Source: Escherichia phage KEP4
Sequence record: PP047754
Length of the DNA: 64,000 nucleotides
Strand: one strand, 5' to 3'
The notes under the pieces were generated by a model. The model ran no database searches and was not told the origin of the DNA. It saw only the letters and a program-made list of their open reading frames with translations. Positions 37,551 through 63,771 of this stretch are shown in pieces (position 1 is the first letter of the stretch; every line of letters begins with the position of its first letter). A program made the translations under genes and the position numbers.

Positions 37551-37973
37551 ATGAAGAAGTATATCGTTCTTATAACGGGTTCCCGTTCTATAACTGAGCG
37601 GGATAAAATCTTCGCCAAACTGGATGAACTGTTAGATCCCCACGAGATCGAAACTTTTATAGAAGGTGAAGCGGTTGGTGTGGACTTGATATCTCGTGAT
37701 TGGTGTGAAATCAATTATGTTCATGTTACACCAATGGAGATCCCTAAGAATTATCACACGATATATGGGAAAGGCGCAGGAAACCAACGTAACAAAGATA
37801 TGTTAGACAAAGCTACAACCCTGGCCAAACAAAAAGGTCTTGAGGTCTTTGGAATTGCATTATGGGATGGTTCGTCTACTGGGACGCAAGACATGATTAC
37901 CCGCATGAAAAAAGCAGGTGTCAATGTCAATATCACTCTCATGGGCAAACCCAAAACCAAACGATTGTTATAA
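37551..37973 (+). CDS. SLOG-type (DprA/LOG-like, DUF2493-like) Rossmann-fold protein, tentative
   Basis: KKYIVLITGSRS...EGEAVGVDLISRDWC pattern; 140 aa; track start 37506 is GTG. Confidence 0.4.
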   Translation: MKKYIVLITGSRSITERDKIFAKLDELLDPHEIETFIEGEAVGVDLISRDWCEINYVHVTPMEIPKNYHTIYGKGAGNQRNKDMLDKATTLAKQKGLEVFGIALWDGSSTGTQDMITRMKKAGVNVNITLMGKPKTKRLL

Positions 37974-38007
37974 ATATGTTTGCCTTCACACCCATATGGA
38001 GTTAGCT

Positions 38008-38179: not shown

Positions 38180-38207
38180 TATAAATACCCCCAAAATTGG
38201 GGGTATT
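38180..38207 (+). promoter_or_regulatory. exact T4-type late promoter TATAAATA (38180-38187) fused to hairpin aataccccc-aaaatt-gggggtatt
   Basis: 9-bp perfect stem 38184-38192 / 38199-38207; GGGGG 6 nt before ATG 38210. Confidence 0.65.
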
Positions 38208-56915: not shown

Positions 56916-57605
56916 ATGAAACGTTTAATCCTCGGGGTTGTGCTGGCAGGTCTGGCATTACCCGCCGCCGCCAAGCTGAACTCCACAGGTGACAAACTGT
57001 GGTCTGATCTTTCCTACTGTGCTGGGTTCTCCCAGGCGGTCGCTATCGACAAGTCCGGTTCCATAGAGAATTTCGCTGAACTTTGGAACACGGGTAACGT
57101 CTCCACTGCTGTTGTTAATGCTGGGATTGAGTTCAACCGTTACAAACAGGGAGCCTACAACTTGAAAGGCTACCTGAATGACGATGAATTTAACCGAGGA
57201 GGCATGGAGGCTGGCGATCTCATCATGACTGGCCGTATGGGCACACAAGGCCGTATGACTGTAAGGCAATGCCGTTCTCTCCCCTCTCCGGCATTACAGA
57301 AGGGTGTGCAAATCGGGCGTCGACATTTGGATCTGATCAATGATGGCAACCAATGCATCAAGGTGTTTGAATATAGTGCCGACCAAGAATCAGATCGACG
57401 TTTGAAAAAGGAATGGCGGACACGTGCCCTTGGATTGAGAGCATGGCTCGTAGAAAACGATTATTACTACGAGGATCGTGTTCAGAACGGATTGAAAGAT
57501 CTTTCTACTAATTTGTCTGTCAATCTAGACGACCCAAGGCTTTCGCGTGAACTCAAGCAAACACGGATTGACTGCGACAATATGATGAAGGAGAACGAAA
57601 GATGA
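56916..57605 (+). CDS. exported protein with signal peptide (229 aa)
   Basis: AAGGAG SD; MKRLILGVVLAGLALPAAAK signal peptide; track start 56796 overlaps the upstream gene. Confidence 0.55.
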   Translation: MKRLILGVVLAGLALPAAAKLNSTGDKLWSDLSYCAGFSQAVAIDKSGSIENFAELWNTGNVSTAVVNAGIEFNRYKQGAYNLKGYLNDDEFNRGGMEAGDLIMTGRMGTQGRMTVRQCRSLPSPALQKGVQIGRRHLDLINDGNQCIKVFEYSADQESDRRLKKEWRTRALGLRAWLVENDYYYEDRVQNGLKDLSTNLSVNLDDPRLSRELKQTRIDCDNMMKENER

Positions 57606-57922
57606 GAAACATAATATTCTTGTTATTCTTTTCTATGTTGGCATCATTCCAAGTTGTGGCAACTCCGGCTAGCAAATTGAATATCTGTGCGGCCTGGTTG
57701 TCTACTTATCAACAATTTCACCCTGATGATAAAGATACATCCATCCTTTTATCAGATTATGAAGGTGAGTTGAAACGCCTTGATCTCTACAGCGTGGATC
57801 AAATAGAGAATGCTTTGGATTTGCCAATGATGGAGTCCGCTGCCGACAATAGCAAACAGACGATCAAAGATCTGACTATGTGTCGGGAAATAGCGACTAA
57901 TTTCGTTGGAAATCAAAGATAA
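57602..57922 (+). CDS. small exported protein with signal peptide (106 aa)
   Basis: AGGAG SD; MRNIIFLLFFSMLASFQVVA signal-like N-terminus; ATGA overlap with upstream gene. Confidence 0.5.
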   Translation: MRNIIFLLFFSMLASFQVVATPASKLNICAAWLSTYQQFHPDDKDTSILLSDYEGELKRLDLYSVDQIENALDLPMMESAADNSKQTIKDLTMCREIATNFVGNQR

Positions 57923-58947: not shown

Positions 58948-58978
58948 AAGGCGGTTATTATTAAACCGCCTTTTATTT
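58948..58978 (+). terminator. rho-independent terminator (aaggcggtt-attatt-aaccgcctt + TTATTTG)
   Basis: 9-bp stem plus U-rich tail. Confidence 0.75.
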
Positions 58979-58992
58979 GAGAGATCTATATT

Positions 58993-59661
58993 ATGAATAA
59001 GAAGAGTCGTATCATCATCGGCGCGGATCAGGGAAATCTGTATTTTGATACAACTGGTGCTATCGCCCACGCCATCCTTCCAACAGGTATTTCTGTTTAT
59101 TGCGTCGAACATCCAGATCCAGCGATCAAACGACTTTGTTACATCCATCGTGAAAAGGGATTGATCGTATTACCAGAAGGCGCAATTATGCGCGCTCGTT
59201 TTTGGCCGATTGATTTTAATTCCATGAGCAATAGGGAGATCGACGCCCGTTTCTTCGCATATAATATGAACCGGACTCTAAAAAATGAAACTCAGAGAGT
59301 TGTTCATTTCGACAATGAAACTCATGGAGTGACGTTAGAATTCAGAATTCGTGGTGAAGCTATTCAGGTGAAGAAATCAAGCTGGAAAACTGAAGGGACG
59401 TTCACATATGATTATGCGTTAATCGACAAATTGTGCAATCAGTTTCGCATTAGTCTGACTGCCAACGACGATTTAGGTCAGTATGTTGTATGGACAGCCC
59501 GTTCACCACATATGAACGGTATCATGATGGAGAGTGAAACTCGTAATCGCGCTGTGCTCCAACTGCTGCTGTTAGACGCGTATTCTCGCAACCCGTTGGA
59601 ATATCTGTCTCGGGAACAGATTGATAACGCGCTTTCTCATTGTAACCGTCTGGAGGTGTAA
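58993..59661 (+). CDS. hypothetical protein (222 aa)
   Basis: ORF only. Confidence 0.5.
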   Translation: MNKKSRIIIGADQGNLYFDTTGAIAHAILPTGISVYCVEHPDPAIKRLCYIHREKGLIVLPEGAIMRARFWPIDFNSMSNREIDARFFAYNMNRTLKNETQRVVHFDNETHGVTLEFRIRGEAIQVKKSSWKTEGTFTYDYALIDKLCNQFRISLTANDDLGQYVVWTARSPHMNGIMMESETRNRAVLQLLLLDAYSRNPLEYLSREQIDNALSHCNRLEV

Positions 59662-59662
59662 T

Positions 59663-59950
59663 ATGTCCGGCGTATGGTGTGATGTATTATTAGTGAGATT
59701 TTCAAATGGGATGGATAACCAGATTATTTCATTCTTTTATCCTGTTCCCTTTTCTTCTATGGGTCTGACTGTCAAGCGCGTTCTTGACATAGAAGAAAAC
59801 CTCAACGCTATGCCGTATATGGCGCGACCACACGTGCTGGGTTGTGAACTGTTAAACGAAATGATGATTGATGAGAATCTTGTTGAAACAATTATCACGC
59901 GTGAACAGATGAAAACCATACTGGCTCAGGGAGAACCCCATGTCGAATAA
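59663..59950 (+). CDS. hypothetical protein (95 aa)
   Basis: GGAGG SD 6 nt before ATG 59663. Confidence 0.5.
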   Translation: MSGVWCDVLLVRFSNGMDNQIISFFYPVPFSSMGLTVKRVLDIEENLNAMPYMARPHVLGCELLNEMMIDENLVETIITREQMKTILAQGEPHVE

Positions 59951-60260
59951 ACCGTTTGAACTTAAATTTCGCGTTTGGCATATTCCCCAGGTTCCTGGGA
60001 TCGCTTTTCATGTTGAGGTTCCAACATTTGAAGAAGCGCAGCGCCTGAAGAATGCTCTGGGTGATTATGATTTGTTCCAGTTCAACAACAATATCAAGCC
60101 GGATTATTGCAATGCTTCGGGCATTCAGATTTATCAACATGATCTGACCGATGATGATCTTAATGATATGGGTCTGGATGATCGTTGGGTTGATATGGAA
60201 GATGTTGACGAACTCAACGATTATTTCGAGCATCTGCGCAGTACAGGGTGGGAAATATGA
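59940..60260 (+). CDS. hypothetical acidic protein (106 aa)
   Basis: GGGAGA SD; Asp-rich C-terminal half. Confidence 0.5.
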   Translation: MSNKPFELKFRVWHIPQVPGIAFHVEVPTFEEAQRLKNALGDYDLFQFNNNIKPDYCNASGIQIYQHDLTDDDLNDMGLDDRWVDMEDVDELNDYFEHLRSTGWEI

Positions 60261-60565
60261 TTTCAAAATATATTGTAAAGCCTGGGGATACTCTGTCCAG
60301 GATCGCTCTAAAATTATATGGTGATGCCCAACAGTATATCAAATTAGCCAGATTCAACAATATCCAAAACCCAGGCCATATCACGGTTGGTCAGATTATT
60401 TGTTTACCCACACCTGTCGAAGACAAAGAACACATTATGATTCCGGTTCAACCGACTCAGAAGTGTTTGGATGCGATAGCTGGTTTATTTCGGCCAGGTT
60501 TTTGTGATGGAACTATTGAACGTCACATTTATCAAGCGATTGTGGAAAACGCAGGTGTAAAATGA
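60257..60565 (+). CDS. LysM-domain (peptidoglycan-binding) protein
   Basis: YIVKPGDTLSRIALKLYGDAQQYIKLARFNNIQNPGHITVGQIICLP is a canonical LysM motif; ATGA overlap with upstream gene. Confidence 0.65.
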   Translation: MISKYIVKPGDTLSRIALKLYGDAQQYIKLARFNNIQNPGHITVGQIICLPTPVEDKEHIMIPVQPTQKCLDAIAGLFRPGFCDGTIERHIYQAIVENAGVK

Positions 60566-60771
60566 TCGGATTAATTCGTTACCTGTTCATATTCGTAATT
60601 TCAACATTCATTTTATTTTTCTTTTTCAAATACTTGAAAGAGACTAAAATCTACCGAAGTAAACGTTGGCGCAAACGGGTGAGGGTAACTTTCCTGCTGC
60701 TGATTTCTTCGGTTACAATAACCGCACTCACATTGGGTGCATATATCTACATTTTTGAAGGGGTACATTGA
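60562..60771 (+). CDS. small membrane protein with two TM helices (69 aa); holin-like topology
   Basis: two hydrophobic segments separated by KETKIYRSKRWRKRVR; ATGA overlap. Confidence 0.45.
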   Translation: MIGLIRYLFIFVISTFILFFFFKYLKETKIYRSKRWRKRVRVTFLLLISSVTITALTLGAYIYIFEGVH

Positions 60772-61562
60772 TGTTCAAGAAATTGGTGTTCGGTGCAATT
60801 ATGGTTCTGGCTGCAAGTCTACTTTCTGGTTGTGGCGGCGTTATCGATGAAGGTAATGTCGGCGTTCGCACCCAATGGGGTGAAGTAGACATGAACCCTG
60901 TAACAGCGGGGATCTACACCAGCTTTGTTTCAAGCGTGGATGTTTACACGACCAAAGAAGCCGTTGTGAGTCTGACTAAAATGACGCCAAAGGCCAAAGA
61001 CAACCTGACTCTGGAAGACTTGGATGTGGATGTTTATTACACACCCAATGTCGCAAAGGTTCCGTGGTTCCATACCAAATTTGCTGGCCAGAGCGCCGAA
61101 CTCGATGATGGCACGATAGCGGTGGGTTTCAATCTAGTTAAAACTGCTGCAGCATCTTCTTCGATGGACGCCGTTTCTTCTCTTGATTCTATGACAATTC
61201 ACACCCAACGTGCTGAATTAGAGAAGATGATTAAAGACCGCACTCAGCAACAATTAGAGACTGCTGCGCCTGGCATGTTCACAATCACACGCGTGTTGGT
61301 CAAAAAGGCGCTGACGGATCCTTCTATTGAGCAGTCTATCCGTGATAATGTTATGGCGGACAAACGATTGGATACGGCAAGAAAGAACGTTGAAATTCGC
61401 GAGCAAGAAGCCCAAGCGAACCAGAAACTGACCACTTCGCTGACGCCTGAATATCTTCAACATGAATATAACATGGTATTACAATCATGTGCCAATAGTG
61501 GAAAATGTACTCTGATCGTTGACGGATCCGGCTCAGGTAAAATGCTGAACGTCGGCAAATAA
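60771..61562 (+). CDS. lipoprotein with SPFH/band-7-like domain, tentative
   Basis: signal plus lipobox MVLAASLLSGC; GNVGVRTQWGEV resembles the SPFH domain start; GAAGGGG SD. Confidence 0.5.
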   Translation: MFKKLVFGAIMVLAASLLSGCGGVIDEGNVGVRTQWGEVDMNPVTAGIYTSFVSSVDVYTTKEAVVSLTKMTPKAKDNLTLEDLDVDVYYTPNVAKVPWFHTKFAGQSAELDDGTIAVGFNLVKTAAASSSMDAVSSLDSMTIHTQRAELEKMIKDRTQQQLETAAPGMFTITRVLVKKALTDPSIEQSIRDNVMADKRLDTARKNVEIREQEAQANQKLTTSLTPEYLQHEYNMVLQSCANSGKCTLIVDGSGSGKMLNVGK

Positions 61563-61645: not shown

Positions 61646-61924
61646 ATGAACCGTACTGATTTTATCGCTCACATCGCCCAGACTCAGGGTATGACCAAAG
61701 GCGAAGCAGAGAAGATCGTGGCATCCTTTATCAACGGCGTAAAAACTGCAGTCGCAGCTGGCCAATCTGTCCAATTCGTCGGCTTTGGCGCGTTTGAAGT
61801 TAAACATCAGGAAGCGCGCACTGGCCGCAACCCGCTGAACGGGCAAGCGATTCAGATCGAAGCGAAAAATGTTGTTAAATTCAAAGTCGGTGAAGGTCTG
61901 AAAGCTGCTGCCAACGGCCAGTAA
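61646..61924 (+). CDS. HU/IHF-family histone-like DNA-binding protein
   Basis: MNRTDFIAHIAQTQGMTKGEAEKIV...FGAFEVKHQEARTGRNPLNGQAIQIEAKNVVKFKVG is a canonical HU fold signature; GGAG SD. Confidence 0.8.
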   Translation: MNRTDFIAHIAQTQGMTKGEAEKIVASFINGVKTAVAAGQSVQFVGFGAFEVKHQEARTGRNPLNGQAIQIEAKNVVKFKVGEGLKAAANGQ

Positions 61925-61973
61925 TCACATCCAGAGCGGTCGTGCCTAGCACAGCGTGTTAGGCTAAAAGAGA

Positions 61974-62002
61974 AAGCCGAGGTTAATGCCTCGGCTTTTT
62001 CG
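61974..62002 (+). terminator. rho-independent terminator (aagccgagg-ttaatg-cctcggctt + TTTTCG)
   Basis: 9-bp stem plus U-tract after the HU gene. Confidence 0.85.
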
Positions 62003-62049: not shown

Positions 62050-63771
62050 GTGACAGCATTTAATCAATACCGAAAGGCGATTGACGCCATAGGCCGTAAG
62101 GTTCCTATAGAAGAAATACAAAGCCTTGCCAAAAACGAATTTCCATATGACAAGGCGAACCAAGGCCAGATGGAATGTATCGTCGAAGCCGTTGATGCCT
62201 TGGTCAACAAAAAGGTCAAACACGTGATCATTGAAGCCCCAACTGGCGTGGGGAAATCTTTGATTGGGACAACAATTCATAAAGTGATTCGCCATTTGGT
62301 TTTACAGGCCGATCCTTATGGGCAATTCCGCACGTCTATCAGTACGCCTACCAAAGGTCTACAAGATCAGTATGCTGCTGAAAAGGCGGTAGCGATAGAC
62401 ATCCTGAAAGGCAAGAAGAACTATCGTTGCCACGTACACCCAGATGTGTATTACAACGCTGTGCAATGCCGTATAGCATGCCGCGACGGGCATTGTAGCA
62501 AACGCCGTTGTCCTTATGTACAGGCGCGTAATTTGTGGACGGATATTTCATCATTGCGTTGTACTAATGCTGCCATGATGATCGAAATGTGTACAACCAT
62601 CTGCATGAAGCCCGAAAACCGTTCCGATATGCTGATCCTTGACGAGTGCCATAAAATGCCCTCTACGCTCCTAGAGCACACGATCATGGAATACAATACA
62701 AAGGCCGTGGAGGGGCTGCGTTCTATCCCTGAGGGCAAGGAGATCGTCTCTACCATTGGTGATATCGTAGAACGTACCAAGGACTATGTCCTGGGCAAGT
62801 TATATTCTTTGTCTGGTGAACTACATTCAATGTTTGAAGACCTCCATCTCAAAGTAGAAAATTTGTTGGAAGTTCTTGAAGAATTGGTCGAAGATGATCG
62901 CTTGAGTGAAAGCCAAGTGATGAAACTCGCCGACATTATAGATGTCTTGCATAACTTGAGTGATTATTGTGGTATTATGTCACAAACCCAAGCAAGTACA
63001 TTTATTGTGCAAGATAAGGGGGAAGATTTTATCCGGTTTAAACCTGTTATGCCTTCTGATGTAAGCGAATTCGGGTTATTCCGAAAAGCCGATTATCACG
63101 TTCATATGTCAGCAACGATCTGTGGTATAGATTCGTATGCTCGTTCATTGGGTATTCGACAGGGGGATTATCATTCCATTCAGATCGGCAATCCTATCCC
63201 AATTGAAAACAGAAAAGTCAACTATATGCCCATAGTGAAGATGACTAACAATATGGGCGACTATGAAATGAAAAGGTTGACGGAATATATTGATGAAATA
63301 ATCGCGTTCCACCCAGGTCAGTCCGGCATTATCCATACAGTGAGTTATGATCGCGCCTTGGCAATACAAAAATTCAGCAAATATCAGAATTTTATCCATG
63401 TTCCGCGTACCCGAAAGGCGTTGATGGATATTATGGAAAATGCTTTTAGAACAAAGTCCCCATGCGTCATTGCCAGTCCGGCTATGGAAGAAGGTTATGA
63501 TTTCAAAGGGGATTACAGCCGTTTCCAAATACTGATCAAAGTCCCTTATGATTATCTGGGCGATCCACTGATAGCACATATCAATTCAGTGGATCCGTCG
63601 GCATATTTCCGCAATGCAGTACTGCGCATTGTTCAAATGTGTGGACGTTCGGTCAGGGGTGTTGATGACTGGGCTGCGACATACATCATTGATTCATCCT
63701 TTGAATCTCTTATGATGCGCAACCCAGAATTCTTCCCAACCTGGTTCACCGATGCAGTGTTTGAGGTTTAA
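62050..63771 (+). CDS. DinG/Rad3(XPD)-family Fe-S helicase
   Basis: GTG start with AAAGGAGG SD; Walker A APTGVGKS, DEAH-type LDECH, Cys cluster (CHVHPD...CRIACRDGHCSKRRC), motif VI QMCGRSVRG. Confidence 0.75.
   Translation: MTAFNQYRKAIDAIGRKVPIEEIQSLAKNEFPYDKANQGQMECIVEAVDALVNKKVKHVIIEAPTGVGKSLIGTTIHKVIRHLVLQADPYGQFRTSISTPTKGLQDQYAAEKAVAIDILKGKKNYRCHVHPDVYYNAVQCRIACRDGHCSKRRCPYVQARNLWTDISSLRCTNAAMMIEMCTTICMKPENRSDMLILDECHKMPSTLLEHTIMEYNTKAVEGLRSIPEGKEIVSTIGDIVERTKDYVLGKLYSLSGELHSMFEDLHLKVENLLEVLEELVEDDRLSESQVMKLADIIDVLHNLSDYCGIMSQTQASTFIVQDKGEDFIRFKPVMPSDVSEFGLFRKADYHVHMSATICGIDSYARSLGIRQGDYHSIQIGNPIPIENRKVNYMPIVKMTNNMGDYEMKRLTEYIDEIIAFHPGQSGIIHTVSYDRALAIQKFSKYQNFIHVPRTRKALMDIMENAFRTKSPCVIASPAMEEGYDFKGDYSRFQILIKVPYDYLGDPLIAHINSVDPSAYFRNAVLRIVQMCGRSVRGVDDWAATYIIDSSFESLMMRNPEFFPTWFTDAVFEV

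Follow-up and report, generated by a model that had tools for sequence, protein, structure and literature searches.

Genes for a predicted SPFH lipoprotein and a small two-helix membrane protein as a candidate two-gene module of Escherichia phage KEP4 and other large phages

SPFH cages, such as those of HflK/C, prohibitin, stomatin, flotillin and erlin, have been seen in many recent cryo-electron microscopy structures, and their function is still debated. The HflK/C cage encloses FtsH (PMC12624060), and the QmcA-YbbJ cage is composed of 26 heterodimers in which the partner is present 1:1 (PMC13086221). Lists of phage SPFH genes date back to 2006 (PMC1524935), and SPFH/Band-7 genes have been noted in 44RR, Aeh1, RB43, Efbeekayvirus GIB1, Burkholderia CSP3, cyanophages and giant viruses (PMC1524935, PMC13239085, PMC10269572). 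For a phage SPFH gene, a role in lysogeny via HflC has been speculated (PMC10269572). Matches in BFVD likewise place SPFH-fold proteins in many phages and giant viruses. Here we analyse a stretch of 64,000 nucleotides (nt) from Escherichia phage KEP4 (sequence record PP047754), hereafter called the window, in which a gene for a 263-amino-acid (aa) SPFH/Band-7 lipoprotein (60771-61562, plus strand) directly follows a gene for a 69-aa integral membrane protein with two transmembrane (TM) helices (60562-60771, plus strand; phrog_11680), the 2TM protein. A gene for a 102-aa LysM protein (60257-60565, plus strand) lies immediately upstream of these two. The reading that we favour, with a probability of roughly 55%, is that the pair would form a periplasm-facing phage SPFH cage with an integral-membrane 2TM partner on the host inner membrane, that its role would not be lysis, and that the LysM gene is separate from it.

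Diverged relatives of the lipoprotein, with identity to the window protein down to 37%, were collected from metagenome contigs, IMG/VR viral contigs and GTDB genomes. An open reading frame (ORF) for a 55-71-aa protein with two hydrophobic helices ends no more than ~30 nt from the SPFH start in 20 of the 22 distinct lipoprotein-type loci, and such a gene precedes the SPFH gene in 21 of the 22 when locus L034, where the distance is ~200 nt, is counted. The small 2TM proteins are homologous: an Arg/Lys close to the N-terminus, a loop of basic character and the motif [F/L]-[E/D]-[H/R/G] at the C-terminus are common to them, and a canonical lipobox is present in all 21 aligned lipoproteins that have this partner. 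Across the paired loci, SPFH pairwise identity falls to 34%, and the identity matrices of the 2TM and SPFH proteins correlate (Mantel r 0.46, 0/2000 permutations). In the window, the 2TM stop codon (TGA, 60769-60771) overlaps the SPFH start codon (ATG, 60771) by 1 nt within the sequence TTGATG (60768-60773), or by 4 nt if the start is instead TTG at 60768. The ATG is the better candidate, as it lies 7 nt past a GAAGGGG Shine-Dalgarno sequence and is used in the annotations of phages Mooltan and CBA120. Judged from these comparisons, the 2TM and SPFH lipoprotein genes are a conserved two-gene phage module and the only conserved unit at this locus.

The pair occurs in a variety of settings. Acinetobacter phage Ab15 has no 2TM gene upstream of its SPFH gene; there (L003 4854-5524) the SPFH lipoprotein is followed by an SGDV-repeat protein, bactofilin-like by eye, and then, as the second gene downstream, by a similar two-helix ORF of 55 aa. 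Cyanophage B3 carries a 54-aa 2TM gene upstream of its SPFH gene. In metagenomic phage loci L007 (612-5617) and L008, an uncalled 57-aa 2TM ORF and the SPFH lipoprotein gene follow a rIIB homologue; the pair is followed by a gene for a 242-aa protein that starts with TM helices and also has a long helical region, and a Bax1-I family gene is found a few genes on. Two other loci (L011 2334-2549 and L012 1076-1291) have, directly downstream of the SPFH lipoprotein gene, a gene for a 71-aa protein with a prokaryotic N-terminal methylation (pilin-like) motif. SPFH and pilin-like-motif domains are also listed for consecutively numbered ORFs, ORF097c and ORF098c, of the T4-like phage 44RR (PMC1524935).

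Cellular relatives have a different organization. About 60 chromosomal homologues from Beta- and Gammaproteobacteria, with 33-44% identity, begin with a TM helix after basic residues, an arrangement predictive of a periplasmic domain, and lack a lipobox, save for two chance motif matches. No small 2TM ORF with an Arg/Lys-rich loop was found upstream of these approximately 60 genes, where only two longer, dissimilar ORFs were flagged, and their neighbourhoods contain no conserved operon. The sole lipoprotein in this chromosomal-homologue set, on Massilia contig L042, has a 2TM partner. Conversely, phage RB43 (L041 9994-11085, minus strand) encodes a TM-anchored SPFH protein without a 2TM partner. 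The intergenic space directly downstream of that RB43 gene contains an unannotated ORF for 32 aa with a single TM segment (MNIKQIILSIFISSFFGFIGGLLGVLIIASVL). Because the lipobox Cys aligns with the end of the TM anchor of the bacterial proteins, and because the partner is restricted to the lipoprotein form, the phage form resembles a periplasm-facing SPFH protein in which the TM anchor was turned into a cleavable lipoprotein signal and to which a separate 2TM protein was added. We found no published description of this combination of lipobox and 2TM partner, or of its contrast with the bacterial relatives.

The original prediction described the third gene product as a lipoprotein with an SPFH/band-7-like start. 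Its assignments to the SPFH family and to the envelope, and its lipobox (LSGC), are borne out, but the resemblance is not limited to the start, since the Band_7 match (PF01145, 50.6 bits against a cut-off of 23.6) covers residues 24-216, most of the protein. A signal peptide spans residues 1-20, and the lipobox Cys21 (codon 60831-60833) precedes a mature part of 242 aa. An AlphaFold2 (AF2) model, built with 34 aligned homologues, has a mean predicted local distance difference test score (pLDDT) of 87. In this model, strands begin at residue 22, directly past the lipidated Cys and with no disordered linker; the SPFH domains extend to approximately residue 182 and are followed by two helices, the 40-aa CC1 helix (184-223) and a further one (226-242), and by short strands at the C-terminus. 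Foldseek comparison with the PDB yields full-length matches at a probability of 1.0 to the human prohibitin complex, erlin1/2, HflK/C-FtsH, stomatin, QmcA-YbbJ, flotillin and the major vault protein, and the matched assemblies are all ring- or dome-forming SPFH structures. On the strength of this model, we confidently predict a full-length cage-type SPFH protein with all parts present, in which the lipobox replaces the TM anchor.

Sequence profiles see less of this kinship. A search of PDB sequences with the SPFH alignment (hmmsearch) gave no match at E<=0.01, and because the profile finds no PDB cage, the lipoprotein appears to represent a divergent branch. NCBIfam models, including those for HflK/HflC, matched neither the 2TM nor the SPFH protein at E 0.01. 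The length of the modelled CC1 helix, entered into a published regression (PMC12624060), suggests a ring of approximately 17 subunits, which is a rough value. Near the C-terminus, a Cys-x5-Cys pair is retained in many forms of the lipoprotein, and this spacing fits a predicted periplasmic disulfide.

The 69-aa protein has, as first proposed, two hydrophobic segments (residues ~7-22 and 42-64) parted by a basic loop, whose net charge is +9; the C-terminus comprises only five residues (FEGVH). Since the positive-inside rule places a +9 loop in the cytoplasm, the predicted topology is N-out/C-out. The 'holin-like topology' of the original prediction therefore does not hold, and the protein also lacks a charged C-terminal tail, a consistent match to a holin family and an adjoining endolysin or spanin gene. 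A Pfam scan of 18 members of the 2TM family gave no NfeD match (PF01957) at E<=1 and one weak holin match (E 0.03). Several identities for this protein or the pair were considered and rejected. A class II holin or pinholin was set aside on topology, the missing charged tail, the family scan and the lack of lysis-gene neighbours. An NfeD protein was set aside because all 18 members, at 55-71 aa, lack an OB-fold or other soluble domain. A spanin pair does not match an inner-membrane protein without a periplasmic domain and a 242-aa SPFH lipoprotein without a C-terminal TM helix.

A working mechanism can be proposed from these features. The SPFH protein would be exported and lipidated, and might then oligomerize into a dome facing the periplasm. 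It would most likely be retained on the outer face of the inner membrane, because its TM-anchored relatives place the domain there, because the 2TM partner is an inner-membrane protein and because no linker follows Cys21. The 2TM protein, made in step with the SPFH protein through the overlapping stop and start codons, may supply membrane-spanning helices or may be the enclosed client, by analogy with QmcA-YbbJ and HflK/C-FtsH, respectively. The complex would not cause lysis. Rather, it could fence off or stabilize a patch of the host inner membrane during infection, whether for control of a host membrane machine or for protection of the membrane, during a long lytic cycle, from damage by secondary phage or abortive infection.

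Several points weigh against this proposal. We infer the physical interaction of the 2TM and SPFH proteins from gene linkage, and co-divergence is expected of any two linked genes. The contrast between lipoprotein and TM-anchored forms coincides with that between phage and bacterium, and therefore the counts are not phylogenetically independent. The AF2 model is of a monomer, and oligomerization is a step beyond it. The lipoprotein of the window reads Cys-Gly-Gly, with no Asp at position +2, a point taken up below. We also infer the timing of expression from the neighbouring genes. Finally, the reason for an SPFH gene in a phage 'remains unclear' according to a 2026 report (PMC13239085), and we found nothing usable in the literature on Kuttervirus transcriptomics or on the roles of cyanophage prohibitins. 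We rank generic membrane control above the possible roles in superinfection exclusion and lysis timing on genomic context only.

Superinfection exclusion shares its architecture with the cage proposal and differs in the role assigned to it. The pair would alter the periplasmic face of the envelope early, as do T4 Imm and Sp or T5 Llp, such that DNA delivery by later phages is blocked; it could instead block lysis from without. Both products are predicted to reside at the envelope, and the pair is carried by large virulent phages, in which genes for exclusion functions are typical. T4 Imm is itself a small two-helix inner-membrane protein. The pair lies in a region of DNA and RNA metabolism, where its neighbours in other phages include RNA ligase, RNase T, rIIB, RecA with an intein and dCMP deaminase, and a homologue of the P22 anti-exclusion gene 17 adjoins it in Kuttervirus and is close to it in Erwinia phage phiEa2809. 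However, this gp17 linkage is not kept outside Ackermannviridae, and the pair has no sequence similarity to the Imm, Sp, Llp or Cor families. We know of no exclusion protein with an SPFH fold. The only PHROG matches of the pair are phrog_11680 and phrog_200, and not the Imm family phrog_1039 (PMC9409062). We thus consider exclusion unlikely, although it fares best among the alternatives.

The gp17-like gene (59940-60260) is labelled 'superinfection exclusion' in many records, yet it is a homologue of P22 gp17, which acts against the exclusion system of a prophage (PMC9409062). This same label covers or adjoins the 2TM gene, itself unannotated, in several records.

A more specific version of the cage proposal strikes us as rather improbable. 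In it, the pair of large lytic phages is a split SPFH nanocage, made up of a lipid-anchored dome in the periplasm and a two-helix membrane subunit from a gene of its own, that mimics HflK/C and cages a host inner-membrane machine, for example FtsH, from the periplasm. If true, the split cage would change how the quality of membrane proteins is controlled during infection, or would keep abortive-infection effectors from the membrane. PADLOC returned no matches for six proteins of the operon.

A role in lysis timing would make the 2TM protein a former of membrane lesions, and the SPFH cage would sequester it, or the true holin, until a trigger, in the manner of a holin/antiholin-like pair or a lysis-inhibition device. 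Translational linkage of a small two-helix protein to a periplasmic protein is consistent with this idea, as is the rIIB homologue that precedes the pair in L007 and L008. SPFH cages are also able to enclose membrane proteins, namely FtsH in HflK/C and aquaporin-1 in stomatin (9zd2). In contrast, the predicted N-out/C-out topology, cytoplasmic +9 loop and five-residue C-terminus are unlike those of class II holins, and the holin match noted above is confined to one of the 18 family members. Neither an endolysin nor a spanin gene was found beside the pair in more than 20 loci, and the neighbours in other phages listed above include no virion gene, in agreement with the initial suggestion that this is not a classical lysis cassette. 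The Kuttervirus endolysin sits elsewhere in the genome (PMC10892097). A terminator separates the pair from a gene annotated as an 'Rz-like spanin' (57602-57922, phrog_3843), found 2.3 kb upstream. Lysis timing is accordingly a poor prospect.

The spanin annotation itself looks doubtful. The gene at 57602-57922 and the one before it (56916-57605) overlap through ATGA, and both products begin with a signal peptide, but a lipobox is missing from the second, and the two do not have an i-spanin/o-spanin layout. The homologous pair lies directly upstream of the 2TM and SPFH genes in phiEa2809 (L002 2548-3341).

Another alternative concerns location, namely that the mature lipoprotein is sorted to the outer membrane, apart from its 2TM partner. 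Under the +2 rule on how lipoproteins are sorted (PMC5727369), Gly rather than Asp at this position predicts, by default in enterobacteria, the outer membrane and thus separation from an inner-membrane partner. Nevertheless, deletion of the linker re-routes E. coli outer-membrane lipoproteins to the inner membrane (bioRxiv 10.1101/2021.01.05.425367), and the phage protein has no such linker past its lipidated Cys. The near-universal adjacency and the co-divergence of the two genes, the occurrence of the partner only with the lipoprotein form, and the inner-membrane placement of the domain in TM-anchored relatives also argue against outer-membrane sorting, to which we give little credence.

The favoured cage proposal leaves the LysM gene outside the module, contrary to the original grouping of all three genes, and its distribution supports this separation. 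In a tblastn search of 50,697 phage records, the SPFH gene was found in 169 records at >=90% identity and the 2TM gene in 156 at >=95% identity. The LysM gene was found in 49 at >=95% identity, and it is carried by only about a third of Kuttervirus records. Phage CBA120 (L039) has the order gp17-like, 2TM, SPFH and HU, with the stop codon of the gp17-like gene overlapping the 2TM start. In alignment with CBA120, the LysM gene corresponds to a clean indel of 305 bp (window 60257-60561; L039 ~1501), with ATGAT at both edges, so that the ATGA stop/start overlap is kept with or without LysM. Klebsiella phage Magnus (Taipeivirus) carries gp17-like, LysM and HU genes with no 2TM or SPFH gene, and phiEa2809 carries 2TM, SPFH, hypothetical, gp17-like and HU genes with no LysM gene. 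LysM was found upstream of the SPFH and 2TM genes in none of about 20 distant loci. Because every gene combination exists, the LysM gene is, as judged from gene content, an independent and separately mobile accessory gene that was inserted between the gp17-like gene and the 2TM-SPFH pair in this lineage. A three-part envelope module in which LysM tethers the 2TM/SPFH complex to peptidoglycan, as the contiguous, overlap-chained genes of the window, Vi01, Mooltan and other records might suggest, is highly improbable and already largely refuted by this distribution of LysM without the pair and of the pair without LysM, and the LysM protein, for which neither a signal peptide nor a TM segment is predicted, would not reach peptidoglycan alone.

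The LysM domain that was recognized at the outset is genuine (PF01476, E 4e-11) and is modelled as E-H-H-E with pLDDT 79-89, though it occupies residues 5-51 only. The accompanying statement that no endolysin catalytic domain is apparent also stands: the C-terminal half of the 102-aa protein matches no catalytic family, the Pfam matches are to LysM alone and the NCBIfam matches align over the LysM region only. An endolysin was therefore rejected as an identity for this protein, which has no peptidoglycan-hydrolase catalytic domain, and the 'endolysin' label in several records traces to phrog_7348 alone. The C-terminal half (60410-60562, residues 52-102) is a small domain of approximately 50 aa with the pattern PTQxxLDAIAxLFxPGFCDGxxERxIY and two conserved Cys residues, and between the Kuttervirus and Taipeivirus copies its conservation exceeds that of the LysM domain. 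The same motif is N-terminal in a 260-aa protein without LysM (P0070). Among 1.84 billion representatives, this half has two real relatives; three other matches are low-complexity or repeat-like by eye. Its AF2 model is of low confidence (pLDDT 54-59). Word-indexed homologue searches yielded three close relatives each for the LysM and 2TM proteins.

The surrounding region of ~2 kb is 99.5-99.8% identical to Vi01-like Salmonella and E. coli phages of the genus Kuttervirus (Ackermannviridae). A terminator-like hairpin with a 9-bp stem and a T-run (58948-58972, plus strand), located at the site of an annotated terminator in phage Mooltan, forms the upstream boundary of the transcription unit and is followed on the plus strand by a phrog_5426 gene (58993-59661), a phrog_5397 gene (59663-59950) and the P22 gp17-like gene (59940-60260; PF17420 at 6e-52; phrog_1510), the last two overlapping by 11 nt. 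Downstream of the lipoprotein gene lies an HU-like DNA-binding protein gene (61646-61924, plus strand; PF00216 at 1e-29), assigned also by annotation in relatives, which is the last gene of the transcription unit. A palindromic GC-rich hairpin (61973-61998) comes next and is probably the end of this unit; it is assigned to neither strand, in that our scan scored it on the minus strand and Mooltan has a plus-strand terminator at the equivalent place. The two hairpins flank the first seven genes, from the phrog_5426 gene to HU. A Rad3-type helicase gene (62050-63771, plus strand) lies beyond.

The LysM, 2TM and SPFH genes are real and chained, as initially described, and all three predicted junctions are present in the sequence. 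In addition to the 2TM/SPFH junction described above, ATGA joins the gp17-like stop to the LysM start (60257-60260) and the LysM stop to the 2TM start (60562-60565). The chain of overlaps comprises five genes, including the gene upstream of the gp17-like gene. However, overlaps alone are weak evidence of a functional unit because they are common here: in 26 kb of annotated sequence from phage Mooltan, which is nearly identical, 12 of the 34 same-strand junctions overlap. A scan for sigma-70 sites returned 9, compared with 8.3 in shuffled sequences, and no promoter was recognizable. The T4-type late motif TATAAATA has no copy near the operon and occurs in the 64-kb window only at 37969-37976 and 38180-38187, which is not above chance; Kuttervirus late promoters here, if any, are therefore not that exact octamer.

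The phage form of SPFH lipoprotein is a distinct design that recurs in many unrelated large phages, with a lipid anchor in place of the TM anchor and with a 2TM partner nearly always. This compact, genetically tractable two-gene system may be useful for asking how an SPFH cage affects a bacterial membrane, and host takeover or protection is a candidate function for it in therapeutic Salmonella and E. coli phages. The analysis also corrects database labels, in that the LysM gene is not an endolysin gene and the 2TM gene is often unannotated or placed under a 'superinfection exclusion' feature.

Among known systems, HflK/HflC have the fold of the phage lipoprotein along its entire length (Foldseek probability 1.0, E 5e-12 to 1e-8) and share with it SPFH domains that are periplasmic from an N-terminal anchor, a long CC1 helix and C-terminal cap elements. 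In contrast, HflK and HflC are two paralogous TM-anchored subunits that form heterodimers, whereas the phage has one SPFH gene, a lipid anchor and a separate 2TM partner. Identity between HflK/HflC and the phage protein is 15-18%, which is too low for FtsH binding or modulation to be transferred from them. The prohibitin-like TM-anchored SPFH proteins of bacteria are the closest cellular relatives, with 33-44% identity along the entire length and the same predicted periplasmic orientation, but these are single genes with variable neighbours and no 2TM partner.

SPFH-NfeD operons such as QmcA-YbbJ likewise have an SPFH gene with an adjacent, co-oriented and co-transcribed gene for a small membrane-protein partner, and QmcA is among the Foldseek matches (8z5g). 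However, the partner in those operons has an OB-fold domain, whereas the phage partner consists of two helices with termini of ~5 residues, and QmcA faces the cytoplasm, whereas the phage lipoprotein is predicted to face the periplasm. Class II holins and pinholins share the small two-TM design with the 2TM protein, whose predicted topology is the opposite of their N-in/C-in arrangement with a charged cytoplasmic C-terminus. By these comparisons, the pair works like an SPFH-plus-partner system, but by defining features it is a member of neither the HflK/C nor the SPFH-NfeD family.

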